DNA of 32,000 bases from Delftia acidovorans NBRC 14950 (GCF_001598795.1 NZ_BCZP01000005.1:305026-337025); one strand, 5' to 3'. Counted from the stretch's first letter, positions 4,025-30,979 are shown. Made by a program: numbers and translations. Notes: a model not told the origin generated them from the sequence alone.

Positions 4025-5686
4025 TTACTTCAGTGCCTTGTAGCGCATGCGCTTGGGCTTGGCACCCTCCTCGCCCAGACGCTTTTTCTTATCGGCTTCG
4101 TACTCCTGGTAGTTGCCGTCGAAGTACACCCATTGCGAATCGCCTTCGGCCGCCAGGATGTGCGTGGCGATACGGTCGAGGAACCAGCGATCGTGGGAGA
4201 TCACCAGCACCGTGCCCGCGTACTCCAGCAGCGCATCTTCCAGCGCGCGCAGGGTTTCCACGTCCAGGTCGTTGGAGGGCTCGTCCAGCAGCAGCACGTT
4301 GCCGCCCTGGATCAGCGTCTTGGCCAGGTGCAGGCGGCCGCGCTCGCCGCCGGAGAGGTTGCCGACCTTCTTTTGCTGGTCCTGGCCGTTGAAGTTGAAG
4401 CGGCCCGCGTAGGCACGCGACGCCATCTGGAACTTGCCGACGTTGATGATGTCCAGCCCGCCCGAGATGTCTTCCCACACCGTCTTGTCGTTGGCCAGCG
4501 CGTCACGCGTCTGCTCCACATAGGCCATCTTGACCGTCTGGCCCACGATGACTTCGCCGGAGTCGGCCTGCTCGCGCCCCGCGATCAGCTTGAACAGCGT
4601 GGACTTGCCGGCACCGTTGGGGCCGATGATGCCGACGATGGCGCCAGCGGGGATGTTCATGGTCAGGTTGTCGATGAGCACGCGGTCACCAAAGCTCTTG
4701 GTGACGTTGTTGAACTCGATGACCTGGGTGCCCAGGCGCTCGGCCACAGGAATGAAGATTTCCTGGGTTTCGTTGCGCTTTTGGTATTCGAAATCGCTCA
4801 GCTCCTCGAAGCGCGCGATACGGGCCTTGGACTTGGTCTGGCGGCCCTTGGCATTCTGGCGAACCCACTCCAGTTCCTTCTTCAGGGCCTTGGCGCGGGC
4901 TTCCTCGCCCTTTTGCTCGGACTCCAGGCGGCTTTGCTTCTGGAACAGCCATTCGGAATAGTTGCCCTTGTAGGGAATGCCGTGGCCACGGTCCAGTTCC
5001 AGAATCCACTCGGCAGCGTTGTCCAGGAAGTAGCGATCGTGGGTGATGGCCACCACGGTGCCGGTGAAGCGGTGCAGGAACTGCTCCAGCCATTCCACGG
5101 ACTCGGCATCCAAGTGGTTGGTGGGTTCGTCAAGCAGCAGCATGTCGGGCTTGGACAGCAGCAGCTTGCACAGGGCCACGCGGCGCTTTTCGCCACCGGA
5201 CAGCTTGCCGATCACGGCATCCCAGGCCGGCAGGCGCAGGGCGTCGGCAGCAATCTCCAGCTGGTGCTCGGAGTCGGTGCCGGCAGCGGCGATCTTGGCT
5301 TCGAGCTCGCCTTGCTCGGCGGCCAGCGCGTCGAAGTCGGCATCGGGCTCGGCATAGGCGGCGTAGATTTCATCGAGGCGCGAACGGGCCGCGTTGACTT
5401 CGGCCATGGCCTCTTCCACGGCCTGGCGCACGGTGTGCTCCGCATTGAGCTGCGGCTCCTGCGGCAGGTAGCCGATGGACAGGCCCTGCATGGGCAGCGC
5501 CTCGCCTTCGAATTCCTTGTCCACCCCAGCCATGATCTTGAGCAGCGAGGACTTGCCCGAGCCGTTCAGACCCAGCACGCCGATCTTGGCGCCCGGGAAA
5601 AAGCTGAGAGAGATGTCCTTCAAGATCTGCCGCTTGGGCGGCACGGTCTTGGTGAGGTGGTTCATCGAGAAAACGTATTGAGCCAT
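4025..5686 (-). CDS. ettA: energy-dependent translational throttle protein EttA (ABC-F ATPase)
   Basis: Canonical EttA N-terminus MAQYVFSMNHLTKTVPPKRQILKDISLSFFPGAKIGVLGLNGSGKSS. Two Walker A motifs (GLNGSGKS, GPNGAGKS) and two LSGGE(K/R) signatures. Length is 553 aa from Met31 of the tracked ORF. Confidence 0.93.
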   Translation of the reverse strand: MAQYVFSMNHLTKTVPPKRQILKDISLSFFPGAKIGVLGLNGSGKSSLLKIMAGVDKEFEGEALPMQGLSIGYLPQEPQLNAEHTVRQAVEEAMAEVNAARSRLDEIYAAYAEPDADFDALAAEQGELEAKIAAAGTDSEHQLEIAADALRLPAWDAVIGKLSGGEKRRVALCKLLLSKPDMLLLDEPTNHLDAESVEWLEQFLHRFTGTVVAITHDRYFLDNAAEWILELDRGHGIPYKGNYSEWLFQKQSRLESEQKGEEARAKALKKELEWVRQNAKGRQTKSKARIARFEELSDFEYQKRNETQEIFIPVAERLGTQVIEFNNVTKSFGDRVLIDNLTMNIPAGAIVGIIGPNGAGKSTLFKLIAGREQADSGEVIVGQTVKMAYVEQTRDALANDKTVWEDISGGLDIINVGKFQMASRAYAGRFNFNGQDQQKKVGNLSGGERGRLHLAKTLIQGGNVLLLDEPSNDLDVETLRALEDALLEYAGTVLVISHDRWFLDRIATHILAAEGDSQWVYFDGNYQEYEADKKKRLGEEGAKPKRMRYKALK

Positions 5687-5953
5687 TCTGGTCCGAGTAC
5701 TTGAATCGTTGATTTCTGCAAAAACCGGGCAACAAATCGGTTGCACGCCAGCCGTGATTATCGGCGCATGCGACAATACCCTGCGTCACGGGTTCCAGTT
5801 GCCCGTGACATCAGCATTCCAGCTGGGGACGATGGACGCTGTTTTCCAGGCTCCCGACATTGAACTACATCCGCCTACGACTGGTCCGGCAACCGCCCTG
5901 GTTGCCTCGACAGGCAGATACCCAGCGCCCCGGACGGGCGCATCTTTGATCAC

Positions 5954-9844: not shown

Positions 9845-9921
9845 CTGCCCGTAGCTCAACCGGATAGAGCAATTGCCTTCTAAGCAATAGGTCGGGGGTT
9901 CGAGTCCCTCCGGGCAGGCCA
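9845..9921 (+). tRNA. tRNA-Arg (anticodon TCT), CCA encoded
   Basis: Hand-folded cloverleaf. Acceptor CTGCCCG/CGGGCAG, D arm GCTC..GAGC, anticodon arm ATTGC-CTTCTAA-GCAAT, T arm GGGGG-TTCGAGT-CCCTC, discriminator G, then CCA. Confidence 0.93.
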
Positions 9922-10349
9922 TCCTGGCATCCCAAGAAATCCCAATGCGTCCAAAGAAGTCCAAGGGCCCGCACTGGTCTCGGGCTTCAGGTACACCTAG
10001 CTTTCGATGTCGTCCAACGGCGCCCCGGTGGCGCGATACACGCGTGACGTGATGCCATCCGGCGTGGGTTCGACGTGCCTGACTACGTGCCTGACTAACG
10101 GCAAGCACCGGGACATTGCCGTGCTCTACGGGCAGGATCGATGGCGCACAAGAGCTGTCTCCTGGCGTCCGCTCGGCGCAGATGCAACACGACAGCCGCG
10201 TGATCGCACGGTCCCGACTGATTGAAAATCTGGTCGCTCTGGAAAAGCAGCTTCCGGAGGTGGAAGACATCCAGGCACCCGGCCGGATCGTTCATTTGTC
10301 AACGATGAAGACGGAGCTCCGGGTGGTAGCCAGTCGGCTTCCCGGCAGC

Positions 10350-11252
10350 TCAGTCTTCGTCCAGCGCCTCAAACCGCTCTGCCAGGAAATCCAGCAGCGC
10401 CCGCACGGCCGGCAGCAGCCCGCGCCGCGAGGCGAACACCGCATGGATGATCTCGCGCCGTGGCGCCCAGCCCGGGATGACGTGGACCAGTTCACCGCGC
10501 GCGATCTGCTCGCGCACCATCATCGAGGGCAGTTGCACCACGCCCACCCCCGCCAAGGCCGCCGCGCGCAGCGCCAGCATGCCGCGCGTGACCAGGCGCG
10601 GCCGGTGGCGGATGGCCGCCTGCGTGCCGTCCGGGCCGATCAGGTGCCACACATGCTCGTGCTGCGGCAGGCCCAGGTCCATGCTCGGCAGGCCTGCCAG
10701 GTCGGCGGGCACCTGGGGGATGCCGCCTGTCAACAGCTGCGGGCAGGCCACCAGACATTGCCCGCGCTCGGCGAGCATGCGCATCACCAGGTCGCTGTCC
10801 TCCAGCGGCGGCGGGCGCACGCGGATGGCAACGTCGATTCCTTCGCCCACCACGTCCACGCGGCGGTTGGTTTCCTCGAGGTGGATCTCCACGCGCGGGT
10901 ACGCGGCCATGAAGGCCGCCAGCATGTCGGCGATGCGCGCATCGAGCAGCGCCACCGGGCAGGTCATGCGCACGATGCCACGCGGCTCGGCGTGGGTCAG
11001 CGCGATGGCCTCGTCGGCGGCGTCGGCCTCCACCAGCATCGCCTTGCAGTGGCCATAGTAGGTCTGGCCGGTCTCGGTGACGGCAAATCGCCGCGTGGAG
11101 CGCTGGATCAGGCGCGTGCCGAGACGCTCCTCCAGCTGCGCAATGCGACGGCTCAGCTTGGATTTGGGCATCCCCAGCGCGCGGCCCGCGGGCGCAAAGC
11201 CGCCGTGGTCCACCACCTGCACGTAGTAGTAGAGGTCGTTCAGGTCTTTCAT
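10350..11252 (-). CDS. LysR-family transcriptional regulator
   Basis: N-terminal winged HTH (YYYVQVVDHGGFAPAGRALGMPKSKLSRRIAQLEERLGTRLIQRSTRR) plus a LysR substrate-binding-type C-terminal region. It is divergently arranged from the isochorismatase genes. Confidence 0.9.
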   Translation of the reverse strand: MKDLNDLYYYVQVVDHGGFAPAGRALGMPKSKLSRRIAQLEERLGTRLIQRSTRRFAVTETGQTYYGHCKAMLVEADAADEAIALTHAEPRGIVRMTCPVALLDARIADMLAAFMAAYPRVEIHLEETNRRVDVVGEGIDVAIRVRPPPLEDSDLVMRMLAERGQCLVACPQLLTGGIPQVPADLAGLPSMDLGLPQHEHVWHLIGPDGTQAAIRHRPRLVTRGMLALRAAALAGVGVVQLPSMMVREQIARGELVHVIPGWAPRREIIHAVFASRRGLLPAVRALLDFLAERFEALDED

Positions 11253-22313: not shown

Positions 22314-22390
22314 TGGGGTGGCTGATGGGGCTCGAACCCACGACAACAGGAATCACAATCCTGGACTCTACCAACTGAGCTACAGCCACC
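22314..22390 (-). tRNA. tRNA-His (anticodon GTG), copy 1
   Basis: The reverse complement folds as G-1 + GTGGCTG acceptor, GCTC..GAGT D arm, CAGGA-TTGTGAT-TCCTG anticodon arm, GTGGG-TTCGAGC-CCCAT T arm, then CAGCCAC-C-CCA. Confidence 0.92.
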
Positions 22391-22644: not shown

Positions 22645-22721
22645 TGGGGTGGCTGATGGGGCTCGAACCCACGACAACAGGAATCACAATCCTGGACTCT
22701 ACCAACTGAGCTACAGCCACC
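22645..22721 (-). tRNA. tRNA-His (anticodon GTG), copy 2
   Basis: Sequence identical to copy 1. Confidence 0.92.
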
Positions 22722-24750: not shown

Positions 24751-24799
24751 TGGTGGGTGCTGACGGGGTCGAACCGCCGACCTACGCCTTGTAAGGGAA
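24751..24799 (-). other. 3' fragment of tRNA-Val(TAC): anticodon loop to CCA only, a prophage attachment-site remnant
   Basis: The reverse complement reads CC-CTTACAA-GGCGT-AGGTC-GGCGG-TTCGACC-CCGTC-AGCACCC-A-CCA. No matching 5' acceptor (GGGTGCT), D arm or 5' anticodon stem lies upstream. Confidence 0.75.
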
Positions 24800-24949: not shown

Positions 24950-24984
24950 TTGAGGGGATCGCCGGTTACTGTATATTTATACAG
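24950..24984 (+). promoter_or_regulatory. sigma70-like promoter overlapped by a LexA (SOS) box, upstream of umuD
   Basis: TTGAGG (24950-24955), 16 nt, then TATATT (24972-24977). A perfect CTGT-N8-ACAG palindrome CTGTATATTTATACAG lies at 24969-24984, 17 nt before the umuD ATG. Confidence 0.85.
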
Positions 24985-25000
24985 CACAAGGAATTCGGCC

Positions 25001-25444
25001 ATGCCCCACCTCATCACCTCCTCACAACCAGTTGCGGTCACCATGCCGCTAACACCGCTGCCGGCCCCCAACAGCCCAGTGCGCGCTGGCTTTCCCAGCC
25101 CCGCCGAAGACTTCAGTTGTGCGCGCATCGATCTGGCCAAAATCATGGTCAAGCATCCCCAGTGCACGTTCCTGCTGCGCGTCCGCGGCGACTCGATGAT
25201 TGGGGCAGGGATCTTCGACGGCGACCTGTTGGTGGTGGACAAGTACTTGCGCCCCCAGCATGGCGACATCGTTGTGGCTGAAGTTGATGGCGACTTCACA
25301 TGCAAAAGATTCTGGGCCAGGTATGACCAGGTGATGCTCCGCGCCGAGAACCCCACATACCCAGACATCCGTGCGAAAGAAGGCCAACAGCTGGAGATCT
25401 GGGGCGTGGTGACGTGCGCCGTCAAGTCGTTCCGCTCATTGTGA
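25001..25444 (+). CDS. umuD: translesion-synthesis protein UmuD (S24 self-cleaving peptidase)
   Basis: AAGGA SD. Cleavage-site region VRAGFPSPAEDF, compared with E. coli QCGFPSPAADY. Ser in RGDSM and Lys in FTCKRF form the dyad. Confidence 0.88.
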   Translation: MPHLITSSQPVAVTMPLTPLPAPNSPVRAGFPSPAEDFSCARIDLAKIMVKHPQCTFLLRVRGDSMIGAGIFDGDLLVVDKYLRPQHGDIVVAEVDGDFTCKRFWARYDQVMLRAENPTYPDIRAKEGQQLEIWGVVTCAVKSFRSL

Positions 25445-25453
25445 GATCAGGCC

Positions 25454-26740
25454 ATGTTCGCGCTGCTGGACGGCAACAATTTCTACGTGAGCTGCGAGCG
25501 CGTGTTCCGCCCGGCGCTCAAGGGCCTGCCTGTAATTGTCCTGAGCAACAACGACGGCTGCGCCATTGCCCGGTCGGAGGAAGCCAAGGCCCTCGGGATC
25601 AAGATGGGCGAGCCATTCTTTCAGATCAAGCACCGCATCCACCAAGGCCTTGTCGCCCTGTCCGCAAATTTCGTGCTGTACGGAGACATGAGCGACCGCA
25701 TGATGTCCCTTGCCGCAGGCCTAGGGCCAGAACAAGAGATTTACAGCATCGACGAATGCTTTATCGGCCTTGCTGGCGTGCACGACGTGACACGCAGATC
25801 ATGGGCAATCCGTGATCGCATCTTGCGGGGCGTGGGCATCCCCACGTGCATCGGCATCGGCCCCACGAAGACTCTGGCGAAACTTGCCAATCATGTGGCC
25901 AAGGACGCGGAGCGCAAGCCGGGCAGCTACCCGAAGGAGCTGGCTCAGGTGTGCAACCTCACTGAGCTACCAACTGCACAGCTTCGAGAATTGCTGGAAA
26001 GCACGCCTGTGGGTGATGTCTGGGGCGTTGGCCGACGAATCAAGATGCGCCTCTTGGATCACCAGATTTATACGGCATGGGATCTCGCTCAGGCACCACA
26101 GGCCCTGGTGCGCTCACACTTCGGCGTGGTCCTTGAGCGCACGGCGCGGGAGCTTCAAGGCACTTCATGCTTGGGTCTTGAGCACGAGCCGCCGCCAAAG
26201 CAGCAAATTGCATGCACGCGCTCATTCGGCAGACCAGTCACTGACCTCGCCCCGCTGATTGAGGCCGTATCGACATTCGCGCAGCGGGCTGCCGAGAAAC
26301 TGCGTGCGCAGAACAGCAGGGCCGGCGCCGTGCATGTTTTCGCGCATACCAGCCCATTTCGTGACGGACCACGGTTTGCCCGCAGCACCACCATCCAACT
26401 CCCACAGCCCAGCAGCGACACGGCGCTGCTGGTGCGTGCTGCAGCGCGCGGGATCGCCAAGATCTACGAGCCCGGCTATCAGCTCTCGAAGGCCGGCGTG
26501 ATGCTGCTGGATCTCACCCCTGTTTCGATACAGCAAGCCTCATTGCTCGATGAGCCTAACGTCTATGCACGCGACCACAGCCCCCTCATGGAGGCCATGG
26601 ACCGACTCAACGAGCGCTATGGCAAGGGCACGTTGGGAGTGGCCAGCGCATTGCAGGTGGCCGGCTGGGGCATGCGCCAGGACCGCCGCACCCCCCGATA
26701 CACCACGGACCTGCACGACATCCCCATCGCACGAACCTGA
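25454..26740 (+). CDS. umuC: Y-family DNA polymerase V catalytic subunit UmuC
   Basis: MFALLDGNNFYVSCERVFRPALKGLPVIVLSNNDGCAIARSEEAKALGIKMG is a typical UmuC/RumB N-terminus. SIDECF motif present. Length is 428 aa. Confidence 0.9.
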   Translation: MFALLDGNNFYVSCERVFRPALKGLPVIVLSNNDGCAIARSEEAKALGIKMGEPFFQIKHRIHQGLVALSANFVLYGDMSDRMMSLAAGLGPEQEIYSIDECFIGLAGVHDVTRRSWAIRDRILRGVGIPTCIGIGPTKTLAKLANHVAKDAERKPGSYPKELAQVCNLTELPTAQLRELLESTPVGDVWGVGRRIKMRLLDHQIYTAWDLAQAPQALVRSHFGVVLERTARELQGTSCLGLEHEPPPKQQIACTRSFGRPVTDLAPLIEAVSTFAQRAAEKLRAQNSRAGAVHVFAHTSPFRDGPRFARSTTIQLPQPSSDTALLVRAAARGIAKIYEPGYQLSKAGVMLLDLTPVSIQQASLLDEPNVYARDHSPLMEAMDRLNERYGKGTLGVASALQVAGWGMRQDRRTPRYTTDLHDIPIART

Positions 26741-26753
26741 CCTGGAGATCGTT

Positions 26754-26969
26754 ATGAAAATGTCTCTCGAAGTTGAGCTTTATCCCACTTTGCTCACAAT
26801 ACCCCGTTGGTTCGGAACGCCAGAAGTGCAGATCCTGCCCGGCCTGCCTGAGCATTACTTCATAAATGAAGTGGAGCCCGGATGGTTTGTTGTGAGGGAT
26901 CTAGACAATGACCTGATTTACAGCGGTCTCGGGCCAGTGTCTGTAGAACGTTCGCGAGCACCATTTTAA
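26754..26969 (+). CDS. hypothetical 71-aa protein
   Basis: The ATG lies 13 nt after the umuC stop and 5 nt after GGAGA. G+C is intermediate (near 48% by my rough count). No motif recognised. Confidence 0.45.
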   Translation: MKMSLEVELYPTLLTIPRWFGTPEVQILPGLPEHYFINEVEPGWFVVRDLDNDLIYSGLGPVSVERSRAPF

Positions 26970-27124
26970 GATGCAATGGATGGATACGTGTTTATCATAC
27001 AATTTCTTCGGGAACTGCTGCTGTACGTTTGCGGCCCGCCTTCGTCAAGGTCACTAACTGATATAGATAGATTTTGAACAATATCAACCAAACAACGGTT
27101 TTTAGTCATCAACAGGATCACTAG

Positions 27125-27940
27125 ATGAGTACAAATGACAGTCTTCAGTTTTTTCTTCGCCTACTGACGCAAAAACATAGTGCACTTCAAGTAGGATTAA
27201 ATAATTTCCTTGGCGAATTGATTGGAAACGACCCAAAAGCGAAGAAACAAGCAGCAGAAACACTCATAAGAACCGCCAATGATTTGAAAGCTGTTTTATC
27301 AAAAAAAGATATACCCCAATGGCTTTCATCCTTAATTGCTCATCTAACTAATTATTTGTCAGGAACCAGTTCCCCAAATGATATTGTGCGAGGCTTTTTA
27401 CCTCTAAAAGTTGCACTTGATGAACATGTTTGGTCTTTTGAACAAAACCCAGAAGCTTCTTTTGATTTTGATTCAATATTTGAGCATTATAAAAAAGAAA
27501 GCCGTCTACCCCAACTTTTCGACGAGATAGTTGAACTACTTGAAGAAATTCAAAATAGTGGCGAAGTGGATAGCCTTATGATGCTACGCGCCCTCGGCAA
27601 GGTGATCGCCACAATAAAACGCTCCAAAGACGGTTCATATTTCTCAATGAACAGCGCGTGGGATTTTCTTTTAAACTTTCTCAATAACTACTTACTTGCA
27701 GAGCTTTCGAAAATTCCTGTGCTAGGCACTGCCTTGGAAGCGCTGGAAAAAACGATCAAGGAGGCTGATGCAGAAATGTGTAGTTTGCACAAAAATTTAC
27801 GGAATGAATTAATTCGCGTAGTAGGGGAAGATGTAAAGGCATTATCTAGAAACGCATCCTTTCCATTCCTAACATACAACGAATCTGGCAATCTTCAAAC
27901 CCCCAAGCCAATTCCACAACTGCCTAACGTTATTACTTAG
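27125..27940 (+). CDS. hypothetical 271-aa protein, predicted all-helical, on AT-rich foreign DNA
   Basis: It is the only long ORF in a strongly AT-rich stretch (22 G/C in the 59 nt I counted at 27121-27179). It has Lys/Asn/Leu/Glu-rich heptad-like helices. No TM segment or catalytic motif recognised. Confidence 0.7.
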   Translation: MSTNDSLQFFLRLLTQKHSALQVGLNNFLGELIGNDPKAKKQAAETLIRTANDLKAVLSKKDIPQWLSSLIAHLTNYLSGTSSPNDIVRGFLPLKVALDEHVWSFEQNPEASFDFDSIFEHYKKESRLPQLFDEIVELLEEIQNSGEVDSLMMLRALGKVIATIKRSKDGSYFSMNSAWDFLLNFLNNYLLAELSKIPVLGTALEALEKTIKEADAEMCSLHKNLRNELIRVVGEDVKALSRNASFPFLTYNESGNLQTPKPIPQLPNVIT

Positions 27941-27949
27941 CACAAGAAC

Positions 27950-28177
27950 TTAATTTGATACAGGCTCGGGACTTGCGGCGACATCCAATCTTTCCCAGAC
28001 TGCTACATCACAGGCTGGACGTCCCCCGTGCTGACGCGATGGCCCGCAGTTCGCGTAGTCCGAAGAAGTTGGTACCCAGCCCTGCACCGCGCCAGCGTCG
28101 ACGATGCATTCGCGCGAGTGGCGGCCATCGGTAGCGCAGCAGTTGGTGCCTTAGCAGTCGCAGGTGTGTTGTGTCAT
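27950..28177 (-). pseudogene. Cys-rich small ORF interrupted by an in-frame TAA after codon 8
   Basis: The ATG overlaps the lipoprotein stop (ATGA). It reads MTQHTCDC-TAA-GTNCCATDGRHSRECIVDAGAVQGW... The region after the stop has high third-position G+C but no start codon of its own. Confidence 0.4.
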
Positions 28178-28518
28178 GGGTGGCTCTCTGTGGTGGTGCC
28201 TGCGGCCGGCAGGCTCGGAGAAATGGGGCGGTGGCAGTTCGCGAGGGCTGCGGTCAGCCGGATTTCGTAGGCCTCGCGCCGCTCAATCTCTGCCTGGGCT
28301 GCCTGCGTGAATTGGTCCACCGTGGCGCCTGGGCGCAGCTGCTCGGTTTGCCTGGCCGGGCGCTCGGGCACCGGCTCGACGCAAGCCACTGGCACAGGCA
28401 CGTTGACCCGCTGCAGCTCGATGCGTGCTGGTGGGGTCTGACACCCGGCCAGGGCCAGCACGGCAGCCGCAAGCACAGGCCAACGGCTGGAATATTTCCG
28501 GGAATAAATTTCGCTCAC
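28174..28518 (-). CDS. phage lipoprotein (proline-rich, Rz1 / exclusion-lipoprotein-like), function unknown
   Basis: GTG start 8 nt after GGGGAGG. Signal peptide with lipobox LALAGC, then a Pro-rich stretch QTPPARIELQRVNVPVPVACVEPVPERP, then a short helical segment. Confidence 0.65.
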   Translation of the reverse strand: MSEIYSRKYSSRWPVLAAAVLALAGCQTPPARIELQRVNVPVPVACVEPVPERPARQTEQLRPGATVDQFTQAAQAEIERREAYEIRLTAALANCHRPISPSLPAAGTTTESHP

Positions 28519-28622
28519 TTTTGCGACCTCCCCTGCAGCCAGTTGTCCACCCGGTGCAGGGCGCTCGCACAGGTATCGTTCAGAACGGCCGGCAGCGCGG
28601 CCAGGATCTCGTCGACGCGCTG

Positions 28623-28766
28623 TTAATGTGTCCAGGCTCGGGCTGCTGCGTTGGCTCGCGCGGCTTCGCCCTCTCTCTTGCGCCGGTCAGCCAACTCCCG
28701 CAGGTCATCGACAGCATCGCTGCAGGCGGCAGCCAAGTCGCGGGTGCCGTCTCGCTGCTGAGTCAT
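28623..28766 (-). CDS. small 47-aa ORF; an 82-aa reading frame continues past its TAA
   Basis: MTQQRDGTRDLAAACSDAVDDLRELADRRKREGEAARANAAARAWTH-TAA-QRVDEILAALPAVLNDTCASALHRVDNWLQGRSQK*. The post-stop part has very high GC3 (31 of 35 codons by my count) and no start codon. Confidence 0.35.
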   Translation of the reverse strand: MTQQRDGTRDLAAACSDAVDDLRELADRRKREGEAARANAAARAWTH

Positions 28767-28960
28767 CTCGCCCACGCTGGCGCGCTCTGTTGTGGCGGTG
28801 CACGCTGGCTCAGGTAGGCCCTGACCAGCAGTGCGTTGCCGAACAGGCTCGCCAGCAGCGCGAGGACAGCAGCCGTACCTAACTCTGACAGTGGTTAATC
28901 TAAGAGAGAGACGCCCCCCCGGCGAATTCAAGCAAATATCTTACAGAAACCAACCGAATC

Positions 28961-29704
28961 TCAGCGAATGAGATTGCTCTCCCGCAAGGCTTCTTTTTGC
29001 TCCAACATTCGTTTGAAGTCAGGGTTAAGATTTGAAACGATCGATTGACCCAGTAAGATATCGGTCCCTGCAACCATATGAGCTGAGCAGTACATCCAAT
29101 CAAGCGTATCTTCGGTAAAAAATGAGCGCCGTACCGGATCGTGTACCAACTCATGCCGCAAATCGAAAAGCATTTTCAGTTTAGTCAAAGAGCTTTCCTC
29201 GAACGTTGATTCTGTCCCAGGCTGATCTTTTAATCGAATTTGCATGCCGATCACGTTACTCCACAATCCGCCTTTGGGGAGAAACTTCGAAAACACTCTG
29301 TCAATTCGGTCAATATTCTGAAAGGACTGAGAGGCTAGTACAATGTCCAGTGGATGCACATTGTGTTCGTAGAATTCTAAGATTTCGGCGACATCATACT
29401 TCTCAGAATGCAATTGCTTAAGGTGAGGCTCAAAGAAGGATGGTTCACAGCTCTTAAAAATGAGCGATAGCAAGTCTTTATAATACACCTCAATACTTGT
29501 CACAGTCGTGATAACTGCCGACCGTTCAAGTAAGTTTGCCACCTCGGTATTCAGCTCCCCTTCCAAAATAAGCTCGCCCGCCTTAGCGCATTGAGCGAAC
29601 GATTCATAAAAAATCTTGAATGGCCGCCCAAGCCGTTCTGAACGGTTTTGCCTACTTTGAAGTATTTTGTTTAGGTCCATATTTACATATCTTAGCGTAG
29701 GCAT
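28961..29704 (-). CDS. HEPN-like protein (R-x4-H motif), candidate abortive-infection RNase, on AT-rich foreign DNA
   Basis: 247-aa ORF in an AT-rich island. RHELVH lies at residues 183-188 (nt 29141-29158) in LFDLRHELVHD. The upstream helices AVITTVTSIEVYYKDLL and SFQNIDRIDRVF resemble the RiboL-PSP / MAE_28990-type HEPN layout as I remember it. Confidence 0.6.
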   Translation of the reverse strand: MPTLRYVNMDLNKILQSRQNRSERLGRPFKIFYESFAQCAKAGELILEGELNTEVANLLERSAVITTVTSIEVYYKDLLSLIFKSCEPSFFEPHLKQLHSEKYDVAEILEFYEHNVHPLDIVLASQSFQNIDRIDRVFSKFLPKGGLWSNVIGMQIRLKDQPGTESTFEESSLTKLKMLFDLRHELVHDPVRRSFFTEDTLDWMYCSAHMVAGTDILLGQSIVSNLNPDFKRMLEQKEALRESNLIR

Positions 29705-29837
29705 CTGAAAGTATGGTTATCTTTGGCGGTCCATCGCTGCACGCGTAGCTGGTACACACGCCGGTCAGCGCGCCACCTTCGGTCAAGCCTCCCGCATCAG
29801 CGCGGCGTCAGCGGCGTGGCCCTCAGCCGCTCGCAGC

Positions 29838-30368
29838 CTACTGCGCCGCCTCGGTCATCGCGCGGCCGGCATCGTAGGCCCGCTCGCAGGCGCCACCCCG
29901 GCCTCGGGCATCGTCAGCAATGCGCGCCAGCTCTCCCGCTCGCTCATCAGCGCGGCGCTGCAGGTCGGCGAGCAGATCGAGGGCGCCGGTGTCTGGCGCG
30001 CACTGTCCGGCAGCGGCGCGAGCCTGAGCGGCGGCACGGTGGGCCGTGATGTAGTCGGCGAGGTCGCCGCGCAGCCGGCCAGCAGCAGCGCGGGCAGCAG
30101 CAGCGTCCACTGCAGCGCGCGCCTGCGCCTGGTGCGCATCACGGGTGACGTTGTCGAGATTTTCACGGTAGGTGCCTTCCAGTTTTCGGTATCGCTCTGA
30201 CGCCAGTAGCGCCGCCGTAGCGGCTGCCTCGCGATCGCTGGCCATCTCGCTACGCGCCTGCGCGGCATCGCGCTCGGCGGCAAGCCGCCCCAGGGCCTGC
30301 CATGCAAGCAACGCCGCCAGCACCAGGGCCAGCGACTGCCACGCATAGGCCTTGAGACCGGCGATCAT
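29838..30368 (-). CDS. i-spanin (Rz-like, DUF2514-type)
   Basis: The ATG overlaps the endolysin stop (ATGA). It has an N-terminal TM segment AWQSLALVLAALLAWQAL followed by a long Ala/Arg-rich coiled coil. Confidence 0.75.
   Translation of the reverse strand: MIAGLKAYAWQSLALVLAALLAWQALGRLAAERDAAQARSEMASDREAAATAALLASERYRKLEGTYRENLDNVTRDAHQAQARAAVDAAAARAAAGRLRGDLADYITAHRAAAQARAAAGQCAPDTGALDLLADLQRRADERAGELARIADDARGRGGACERAYDAGRAMTEAAQ
29855..30139 (-). CDS. o-spanin (Rz1-like lipoprotein) embedded out of frame within the i-spanin gene
   Basis: MRTRRRRALQWTLLLPALLLAGC lipobox, followed by a Pro-rich mature part (SRPTVPPLRLAPLPDSARQTPAPS). It lies entirely inside 29838..30368 in another frame, as in lambda Rz/Rz1. 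Confidence 0.75.
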   Translation of the reverse strand: MRTRRRRALQWTLLLPALLLAGCAATSPTTSRPTVPPLRLAPLPDSARQTPAPSICSPTCSAALMSERESWRALLTMPEAGVAPASGPTMPAAR

Positions 30369-30979
30369 GGTGCCGCCCGTACCGCGACCAGCGCTGCGCT
30401 GAAATGCCCGTCCCTGCCCCACTGTGCGCACAGCTCGCGGGTGGCATCGCGGCGATCAACAAGGCCAGGCAGCCGCGTGGGCACGCCGTTCACGGTGCCG
30501 TGGACCCATCGAGGCATCTGCAGGCATGCAGCATCGAGTTGCCCGGCGTTCGCCAGCCGCATGACCGTCGTGTCAGGTGCCAGCGCCGAGGGCACGTTGT
30601 AGGCCATATCGATAAAGCTGGCCTGCACCCACACGTTGTAGCTGTCCCAGTTCCGCAGGGCGCGGCGCGCCAGGCGCTCGGCCTCACGGTATTTGGGTCG
30701 CTCCAGGCGCTCGCAGTCCTCGGGCTTGTAGTAGCGCCCCGCCACAACTTCGGTGCCTGTGACGCCCGCGCAAACTGTCAGCGGCTGGCCCTTGCCCAGG
30801 CGGTCAACGTAAGGCGTGCCGATATGCCGGCCGCTGCTCTCGTAGTGCAGCCCGATCTCGCGGGCCAGCGTCACGGCAGCGCTGGGCCTGGTCTCCTGCG
30901 TGGCGACATAACCACCGGCAGCGGTGGCTGCCAAGCCGGCGGCCGTAGCCAGCAGTCGATTACGCAATATCTCGTTCAT
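30365..30979 (-). CDS. phage endolysin, GH24 lysozyme-like, with SAR-type N-terminus
   Basis: Weakly hydrophobic Gly/Ala-rich N-terminus LLATAAGLAATAAGGYVA. Motifs YESSG...YVDRLGKGQPLTVCAGVTG, SFIDMAYNV and GLVDRRDATRELC are as in P21-type lysozymes. The ATG overlaps the holin stop. Confidence 0.75.
   Translation of the reverse strand: MNEILRNRLLATAAGLAATAAGGYVATQETRPSAAVTLAREIGLHYESSGRHIGTPYVDRLGKGQPLTVCAGVTGTEVVAGRYYKPEDCERLERPKYREAERLARRALRNWDSYNVWVQASFIDMAYNVPSALAPDTTVMRLANAGQLDAACLQMPRWVHGTVNGVPTRLPGLVDRRDATRELCAQWGRDGHFSAALVAVRAAP

Follow-up and report, generated by a model that had tools for sequence, protein, structure and literature searches.

A variable cargo slot has been delineated in a prophage of Delftia acidovorans NBRC 14950, within one strand of a 32,000-nucleotide (nt) stretch (GCF_001598795.1 NZ_BCZP01000005.1:305026-337025) that we call the window and from whose first letter all coordinates are counted. 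The slot lies between orf71, a small gene next to umuDC, and the lysis gene Rz. We consider it moderately probable that it holds two separate AT-rich acquisitions on either side of an older remnant of the phage backbone, and that these acquisitions are defence cargo. On the Rz side, an AT-rich single-gene unit encoding a RiboL-PSP-HEPN protein would have been acquired; on the orf71 side, orf271, a gene for a 271-aa protein, would have descended from an integron gene cassette and since lost its attC site; the middle would be an alternative spanin pair with the stub of a gp49-family gene, redundant beside the intact Rz/Rz1 pair and decaying. A first-pass annotation had singled out the interval between umuC and Rz as a likely place for anti-phage genes, and the present analysis follows up its claims.

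For delineation of the slot we used as relatives 41 viral contigs retrieved by an IMG/VR scan with the Rz protein (contigs and loci are designated by L numbers below). Nucleotide homology with these relatives (blastn) stops on the left at 26965–26968, that is, at the orf71 stop codon. On the right, most relatives match up to 29838–29870 (the Rz stop codon), while L014 extends to 29790, and L011 and L017 to 29726. As orf71 and Rz are convergent, the slot lies between their stop codons. The orf71-to-Rz interval, measured in nine relatives, varies from 0.68 kb (L015) to 4.2 kb (L031), and none of the nine has slot contents related to the window's; tblastn found neither orf271, nor the HEPN gene, nor the open reading frames (ORFs) of the GC-rich part in any of the 41 contigs. 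The slot can thus be placed at 26970–29725, and all of it, the GC-rich part included, is peculiar to this prophage and a single close relative, a 6.8-kb contig (L001) of a closely related prophage. One of the 41 contigs, L035, has the side comprising ppiD, a tRNA fragment, umuDC and orf71 in common with the window at 86% nt identity and carries different cargo, which indicates integration at the same site.

The main ORFs in the slots of relatives were classified by Pfam and PADLOC scans. The L031 slot contains a gene for a 589-aa AIPR/AbiU protein (PADLOC, 1e-108), an AT-rich gene for a 168-aa protein without known family, and a duplicated 3' fragment of Rz. The L014 slot (L014:8395-10474, 39–40% GC) contains a gene for a 294-aa FRG-domain protein, PDC-S15 (3e-44), beside that for a 302-aa PF05168 HEPN protein, and these two may constitute a two-gene defence unit. 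A D12 N6-adenine methyltransferase (type II; 2e-95) is encoded in the slots of L023 and L035, and proteins without recognized family in those of L011, L012, L015 and L017. Hence the suggestion that the Rz-to-umuC interval is a variable-cargo slot holds, with exact breakpoints and with known defence genes among the contents of relatives, and the slot appears to be a real prophage hotspot, rich in defence genes and not limited to them; this conclusion is well supported. The second, partial 3' end of Rz in L031 (L031:9230-9391, 82% nt identity to window positions 29911–30038) is situated between the genes for the 168-aa protein and AbiU. It is probably a scar of recombination at the spanin gene, and suggests that the slot contents are swapped through recombination within the spanin genes or close to them.

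Base composition was analyzed with a 200-bp sliding GC profile, GC counts per segment, and GC at third codon positions (GC3). The GC content of the whole window is 64%, and that of the region's flanks, 60–76%; GC3 of ppiD, umuD, umuC and Rz is 0.73–0.82. Against this background, the leader segment of orf271 (26970–27124) has 41% GC, orf271 itself (27125–27940, plus strand), 39% with GC3 of 0.33, the middle (27962–28895), 66%, and the Rz-side AT-rich segment (28896–29725), 44%, with GC3 of 0.49 for the HEPN gene. The spacer 3' of Rz (29726–29837, minus strand) has 72% GC and forms the right, backbone edge of the slot. Both the sliding profile and the segment counts reproduce the tripartite AT/GC/AT composition of the first-pass annotation at its coordinates, including the abruptness of the steps (each spans at most 100 bp) and the two spot counts (37.3% at 27121–27179 and 61.7% at 25451–25510), and orf71, orf271 and the minus-strand HEPN-like gene are all found where they had been placed.

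The attribution of orf71 (26754–26969, plus strand) to an AT-rich cassette did not survive. This gene has 50% GC with GC3 of 0.50, and is conserved in relatives, where it is next to umuC or marks the edge of the slot: by tblastn it was located in L011, L012, L014, L015, L017, L023, L029–31, L035, L066–70, L072 and L079, and it directly adjoins umuC in L015, L035 and L079, the last one being a contig retrieved with the relic lipoprotein described below. Since orf71 is conserved in so many related contigs, with homology ending at its stop codon, we regard it as a backbone gene forming the left edge of the slot, rather than as cargo. Its product has no family match in Pfam and PHROG scans. In some related phages orf71-like genes form tandem pairs (L029:5116-5515; L066:7120-7510).

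The HEPN gene (28961–29704, minus strand) encodes a 247-aa protein that matches PF18735 (RiboL-PSP-HEPN) over residues 52–198 with 32.5 bits against the curated cut-off of 28.4 (E = 1e-7). Thus its likeness to HEPN proteins, noted previously, is borne out, while the idea of an undescribed kind of gene has to be abandoned, as the family was described in 2013. The protein contains the catalytic Rx4H motif R183-H-E-L-V-H188 (RHELVH). In the alignment of 41 of its 111 homologues R183, H184, L186, V187 and H188 are invariant, as are R61, E72, K102 and S127-F-Q129, and E185 is conserved in at least 90% of sequences. Most homologues begin at the residue aligned with Met9, and hence the true start is likely at 29680, yielding a product of 239 aa. 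Ribo L-PSP-HEPN proteins have an Rx4-6H motif, are fused to endoRNase L-PSP or encoded in an operon with ParB, are distantly related to AbiD/AbiF, and probably target mRNA (Anantharaman et al., 2013, PMC3710099). Neither an L-PSP fusion nor a ParB neighbour is seen in the window or in six other contexts of HEPN-gene homologues: the window protein is single-domain, its gene is flanked by Rz and the relic spanin, and the longer homologues of 370–380 aa have no recognizable extra domain. There is also no intact companion ORF within 28896–29725, hence no adjacent antitoxin gene as in the type II toxin–antitoxin layout.

In these other contexts the homologue stands as a single gene. Its surroundings are a transposon-rich island in Rhodoferax ferrireducens T118 and an integrase island in Janthinobacterium; in Nitrotoga it comes after a CptA toxin gene, in Iodobacter it is alone, and elsewhere a Fic gene is found on one side and a gene of the DpnII family on the other. 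In L084, an NTP_transf_2 gene is located about 800 bp upstream of the homologue, an arrangement that is not conserved. Neither IMG/VR nor a set of 50,697 phage records contains the gene, and no family member with a solved structure has been found. There are possible traces of a cassette nature, namely GTTAG about 30 nt upstream of the homologues in L007 and L081 and a hairpin in L007 (z = –2.2); no arrays were found around these genes. Taken together, these data point to a new solitary member of a described family, and we infer that its product would be a solitary RNase of the abortive-infection type. Two side observations concern the homologues. The same 346-aa protein without known function is encoded after the homologue both in Rhodoferax ferrireducens T118 (L007:8001-9855) and in a 3.4-kb metagenome contig (L008:1319-3173), and has no counterpart in the window. 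The sole plasmid match in PLSDB (39% identity) is a hypothetical gene at NZ_CP080639.1:5118-5696, on an 8.2-kb non-mobilizable plasmid of permafrost Acinetobacter lwoffii.

The second candidate, orf271, belongs to an unannotated family of all-helical proteins of about 270 aa. Its 129 homologues are of nearly constant length, and a profile search of 1.8 billion representatives yielded 495 clusters at 50% identity; among the 150 clusters listed, lengths range from 119 to 301 aa, mostly 250–290 aa, and none has an added domain. No match was found in Pfam, PADLOC, PHROGs and NCBIfam, or in a comparison of the profile with PDB sequences. The conserved core reads FDFDSIFEHYK...SGEVDS...GSYFS.NSAW.FL..F..NY, with a conserved F246-x-F248-x2-Y251 motif in the disordered tail, and neither the alignment nor the models contain a catalytic-looking motif or a nucleic-acid-binding signature. 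The AlphaFold2 model has nine helices with predicted local distance difference test score (pLDDT) of 80, and the C-terminal half modelled separately is a five-helix bundle (pLDDT 87, predicted template modelling score 0.78). Foldseek searches of PDB and BFVD with the full model gave best E-values of 0.33–0.38 with template modelling scores below 0.3, and a search with the C-terminal domain produced generic helical bundles only (best E = 0.24). Few loci carry the gene: 14 in 185,579 species genomes, one in IMG/VR and six in a metagenome scan, with none in the 50,697 phage records and none in PLSDB. In all 18 loci compared (18/18) the gene is AT-richer than its locus, and there is no conserved neighbour; one locus is inside a Mu-like prophage. 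The family is thus undescribed, and the leads to its function are the slot location in the window and the mode of travel elsewhere.

As for the latter, the orf271 family is in relatives a family of integron cassettes, which the first-pass annotation had not noticed. In Vibrio aestuarianus LMG 7909 (L064) a homologue at 4950–5943 is situated between consecutive repeats, in a region with 18 attC-like repeats in 11 kb; in Colwellia sp. RE-S-Sl-9 (L062) another one, at 9944–10922, is also found between consecutive repeats, of which there are 22. Both arrays, recognized by the attC-like repeats alone at a spacing of 340–990 bp, are sedentary chromosomal integrons. In Colwellia, many tandem units of about 340 bp are likewise part of the array. 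The family consensus about 20–25 nt before the start codon is ...GCGTTAGTGCTACAGGAG..., and the stop codon TAG is followed by CACTAACAAG.... Cassette motifs were counted in 20 loci, with randomly chosen positions of these loci giving the chance level: GTTA[GT] within 45 nt upstream of the start is present in 11/20 loci (6.6% by chance), YTAAC within 18 nt from the stop, in 7/20 (2.5% by chance), and both downstream elements, in 5/20 (0.6% by chance). Two lone copies retain an attC-like hairpin framed by ...TAAC and GTTA..., with z = –5.4 (L004) and –3.6 (L002), none of 200 shuffled sequences folding as well. The former is a solitary cassette of Vogesella alkaliphila located between UPF0060/scpB and scpA (L004:8001-8890), that is, in a housekeeping region, and the latter comes from a betaproteobacterial metagenome-assembled genome, beside two toxin–antitoxin pairs. 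Integron integrases can insert cassettes at secondary sites, and the lone copies fit such integrase-mediated insertion. The gene thus moves singly, in a cassette of about 950 bp that has a short leader, and such an origin would explain why orf271 is solitary.

In the window itself, both ends of the cassette are degenerate, and cassette ancestry of this copy is inferred from the family. The AT-rich leader (26970–27124, plus strand) ends in a degenerate cassette 5' boundary, GGTTTTTAGTCATCAACAGGATCACTAG immediately followed by ATG; the corresponding stretch reads GGTTTTTAGTCATCAACAGGA..., which resembles the GTTAG core and fails the strict motif. Downstream, a vestige of the attC inverse core, CACAAGAACTTAATTTGATAC (27941–27961, plus strand), is cut off by the GC-rich DNA. 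Experiments have demonstrated phage resistance encoded by mobile-integron cassettes without known function, and such cassettes are found outside integrons too (Kieffer et al., bioRxiv 10.1101/2024.07.02.601719); this result makes a defence role of orf271 plausible; in the window, the argument for such a role is solely the location of the gene.

The GC-rich middle, whose nature the first-pass annotation had not recognized, is a relic of an alternative spanin pair and a stub of a gp49-family gene. The i-spanin pseudogene (28515–28894, minus strand) consists of three frame fragments collinear with an intact 121-aa i-spanin of L075 (5555–5920), which is N-terminally anchored and matches phrog_214, "Rz-like spanin", at 5e-6. 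Its start codon is gone, as the AT-rich DNA cuts in at about 28895, and it has a frameshift near 28815 and an in-frame TAA at 28623–28625. The relic o-spanin lipoprotein (28174–28518, minus strand, 114 aa; phrog_3580, 7e-12) has the lipobox LALAGC, starts with GTG preceded by GGAGG, not with ATG, and is 84–90% identical in aa sequence to lipoproteins encoded after the endolysin and i-spanin genes in L066–L072. The 5' stub of a Phage_gp49_66-family gene (27950–28177, minus strand) reads MTQHTCDC*GTNCCATDGRHSREC..., the in-frame TAA being at 28151–28153, aligns with intact genes encoding 173–181 aa (e.g., L066 6270–6815, whose product matches PF13876 at 1.4e-31, and L068 6270–6791), and is truncated on the 3' side near 27950–28014.

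These relatives come from an IMG/VR scan with the 114-aa lipoprotein, which yielded 15 contigs; tblastn of the relic lipoprotein against GenBank phages gave no match. Window positions 28875–28159 are about 82% identical in nt sequence to one contiguous block in L066–L072, where the order is endolysin, 121-aa i-spanin, 111-aa lipoprotein (with an ATGA overlap), the gp49 gene, and then orf71-like genes on the opposite strand. In L075 the block comes directly after the endolysin gene, and in L079 orf71, umuC and umuD come about 600 bp after the end of the lipoprotein gene. Since the relic retains the strand and order of the backbone, it would be the older resident, with the AT-rich segments having arrived on either side. 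It would be free to decay because the intact Rz/Rz1 pair makes it redundant. Decay of the GC-rich module, suspected earlier, is thus evident from the stops, frameshift, missing start and truncation. Of the four small ATGA-coupled ORFs described there, the coupling stands at 28766 and 28177 (the junction at 28518 being GTGA), while the four genes turn out to be fragments of three. In L001, a further deletion of 600 bp (window positions 28042–28644) removes the whole lipoprotein gene.

Comparison with L001 demonstrates that both orf271 and the HEPN gene are under purifying selection, the ratios of nonsynonymous to synonymous substitution rates (dN/dS) being 0.21 and 0.16, respectively. According to our reading, the HEPN protein would act as a dimer, as an RNase of the abortive-infection type that needs no metal; it would do no harm in the lysogen and would cut RNA once triggered by a superinfecting phage. 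The orf271 protein is modelled as a two-domain helical bundle without catalytic signature, and we suggest, with low confidence, that it may be a single-gene factor of phage exclusion or abortive infection acting through protein contacts. As orf271 lies 3' of the SOS-boxed unit umuD–umuC–orf71, and the HEPN gene, 3' of the endolysin and Rz/Rz1 genes, both could be expressed by read-through from the two convergent operons, which would suit a promoterless former cassette.

Several observations weigh against this reading. No antitoxin or regulator is evident for the HEPN protein. The window copy of orf271 has no attC, that is, neither the motif nor a hairpin (z = –0.6 and +1.2), and is not in an array. 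A scan of 26600–30000 revealed no terminator-like site and no promoter above shuffle expectation, a result that would nevertheless permit read-through. Which acquisition came first, and by what recombination events, is a reconstruction. Moreover, orf271, the HEPN protein and orf71 match no PADLOC-DB 2.0 model at E ≤ 0.1, as had been anticipated in the first-pass annotation, which recognized no named defence system in these proteins. The neighbourhood census of orf271 homologues (129 ORFs) comprises mostly housekeeping genes, with a few defence- or toxin-like neighbours (mad3/mad8, OLD-type ATPases, Fic, PIN and DUF4917), and some of the ATPase matches may reflect SMC. Finally, the slot holds non-defence, metabolic cargo too: isochorismatase-like and DUF421-like genes, identified by likeness to those of L001, are present in L068 and L072 from a second phage lineage sharing orf71, and their counterparts in L001 itself.

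The last three points, along with the absence of a catalytic or nucleic-acid-binding signature in orf271, are also in line with an alternative in which the cargo is real and not anti-phage: the HEPN protein would be a selfish addiction or stress toxin stabilizing the prophage, and orf271, an unrelated adaptive cassette or a neutral passenger. Most integron cassettes indeed have varied and unassigned functions. Still, the slot of relatives is occupied by AbiU, PDC-S15 and methyltransferase genes, the HEPN family is related to Abi proteins, both genes are maintained by purifying selection, and their absence from the 50,697 phage genomes argues against a role in the phage life cycle; in addition, enrichment in defence genes has been demonstrated for integron cassettes without known function. 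We find this alternative rather unlikely, although it is the most serious competitor of the defence-cargo reading.

The first-pass annotation had left two options, one system split in two or two independent single-gene systems. In the former case, orf271 and the HEPN gene would form one two-gene system, a sensor or antitoxin with its RNase effector, split by a GC-rich insertion. In its favour, the two genes are convergent and both rich in AT, a HEPN toxin encoded on its own could be expected to require a partner, and in L001, the only close relative and the only locus holding both, they are inherited together at a distance of about 390 bp. On the other hand, among the other fetched loci (about 20 distinct ones with orf271 and six with the HEPN gene, checked within 6–10 kb) none has the partner gene, and orf271 moves as the one-gene cassette of about 950 bp described above. 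Different histories are also indicated by the synonymous divergence (dS) from L001, which differs four-fold between the two genes (0.38 in orf271, 0.089 in the HEPN gene). As for the GC-rich piece, it has the strand and gene order of the phage backbone in L066–L079 (endolysin, spanins, gp49, orf71), as expected for an older resident and not for an insert. A family relationship between the two proteins was also considered and rejected, their profiles being unrelated in the profile–profile comparison with hhalign. A split system is accordingly quite improbable, and the other option, two independent single-gene units, is supported.

Least probable of all is a reading in which the AT-rich stretches are functionless foreign DNA undergoing decay, with ORFs that survive by chance: they do adjoin a plainly decaying module, no promoter was detected and the attC of orf271 has been lost, but both ORFs are intact and full-length compared with families of 111 homologues and 495 clusters, keep all invariant residues including RHELVH, and have dN/dS of 0.16–0.21, whereas the adjacent relic has gathered stops, a frameshift and a deletion.

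The slot provides two easily tested single-gene candidates, a predicted solitary RiboL-PSP-HEPN RNase and a widespread, wholly unannotated helical protein. The hotspot is defined to the base, so that orf71 and Rz can serve as bait for harvesting further candidate defence genes from relatives. The relic illustrates turnover of the slot, by recombination with other phages at the lysis genes and subsequent decay of the redundant copy. An integron cassette family has apparently ended up as prophage cargo, which links integrons and prophage hotspots, usually studied apart. A bolder extension, tentative and in our estimate more doubtful than likely, is that orf271 would represent a new single-protein, non-enzymatic anti-phage factor, and that integrons and prophage hotspots would share one pool of defence cassettes.

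The remaining features of the region are as follows. On the left, umuD (25001–25444, plus strand; Pfam Peptidase_S24, 4e-31) and umuC (25454–26740, plus strand; IMS, IMS_C and DUF4113) are kept together with orf71 in L015, L035 and L079 at 88–92% aa identity, and may be either backbone or older cargo. A perfectly palindromic LexA (SOS) box, CTGTATATTTATACAG, is found at 24969–24984 (plus strand), about 17 nt upstream of the umuD start. The pattern CTGT-N8-ACAG has a single match in the 32-kb window, and 30 of 100 shuffles yield at least one match; the box is credible because of its placement directly before umuD, and the prophage-borne umuDC would then be LexA-controlled. In L001 (L001:221-4535) umuDC is absent save for about 115 bp of the umuC 3' end, with genes for SRAP, isochorismatase, DUF421 and a second orf71 paralogue instead.

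Beside ppiD, the 3' half of a tRNA-Val(TAC) gene (24752–24797, minus strand) can be read by eye, with the anticodon loop CTTACAA, the T-arm and the ACCA end. ARAGORN called no tRNA-Val in the window, so that of the tRNA-Val named earlier the 3' half stands and a complete gene does not. This half fits an att-site remnant at the ppiD-side end of the prophage, and the site beside ppiD is that of this copy and of L035. Two tRNA-His(GTG) genes (22314–22389 and 22645–22720, minus strand, about 330 bp apart) are located just upstream of ppiD, and a tRNA-Arg(TCT) gene, at 9845–9921.

On the right, the functional Rz i-spanin gene (29838–30431, minus strand; DUF2514, 2e-15; phrog_312, "Rz-like spanin", 5e-24) has an embedded Rz1 lipoprotein frame containing ...LLLPALLLAGC..., and a lysozyme-family endolysin gene continues the lysis operon beyond Rz/Rz1 on the minus strand. 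Within the slot, an Rfam search (E ≤ 1) gave nothing relevant, Tandem Repeats Finder detected no repeats, and a search for direct and inverted repeats returned short chance-level pairs only, neither cassette being flanked by repeats.

Compared with known systems, the orf271 family resembles BRiCs (Kieffer et al., bioRxiv 10.1101/2024.07.02.601719) in that its members are cassettes of a single gene, about 950 bp long, that have a short leader and attC and are present both in arrays and at secondary sites; the likeness is to BRiCs as described, and the window copy differs in residing in a prophage and having lost its attC. The HEPN gene shares with the RiboL-PSP-HEPN family the Pfam score above the cut-off, the invariant Rx4H motif, the small single-domain product and the mobile contexts of homologues, and differs by being solitary, without the endoRNase L-PSP fusion or ParB neighbour from which the family takes its name, and by not being represented in PADLOC 2.0. 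The relic is homologous to an i-/o-spanin pair that follows an endolysin gene, with the ATGA junction and lipobox typical of two-component spanins of the Rz/Rz1 type; unlike these, it is non-functional here, and its task is performed by a second, intact Rz/Rz1 pair of another type. Finally, the prophage cargo hotspot is already known as a kind of object: defence hotspots of prophages and satellites are flanked by core genes, examples being those of P2/P4 and the moron sites beside the lysis genes of lambdoid phages. The slot is similar to them in having conserved flanks, orf71 and Rz, around an interval that varies in length and content and includes AbiU, PDC-S15 and methyltransferase genes. 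It differs in belonging to a high-GC prophage lineage, in its position between the convergent 3' ends of umuDC–orf71 and the lysis operon, and in its content, which appears to be partly derived from an integron cassette and keeps the relic of a swapped spanin pair.

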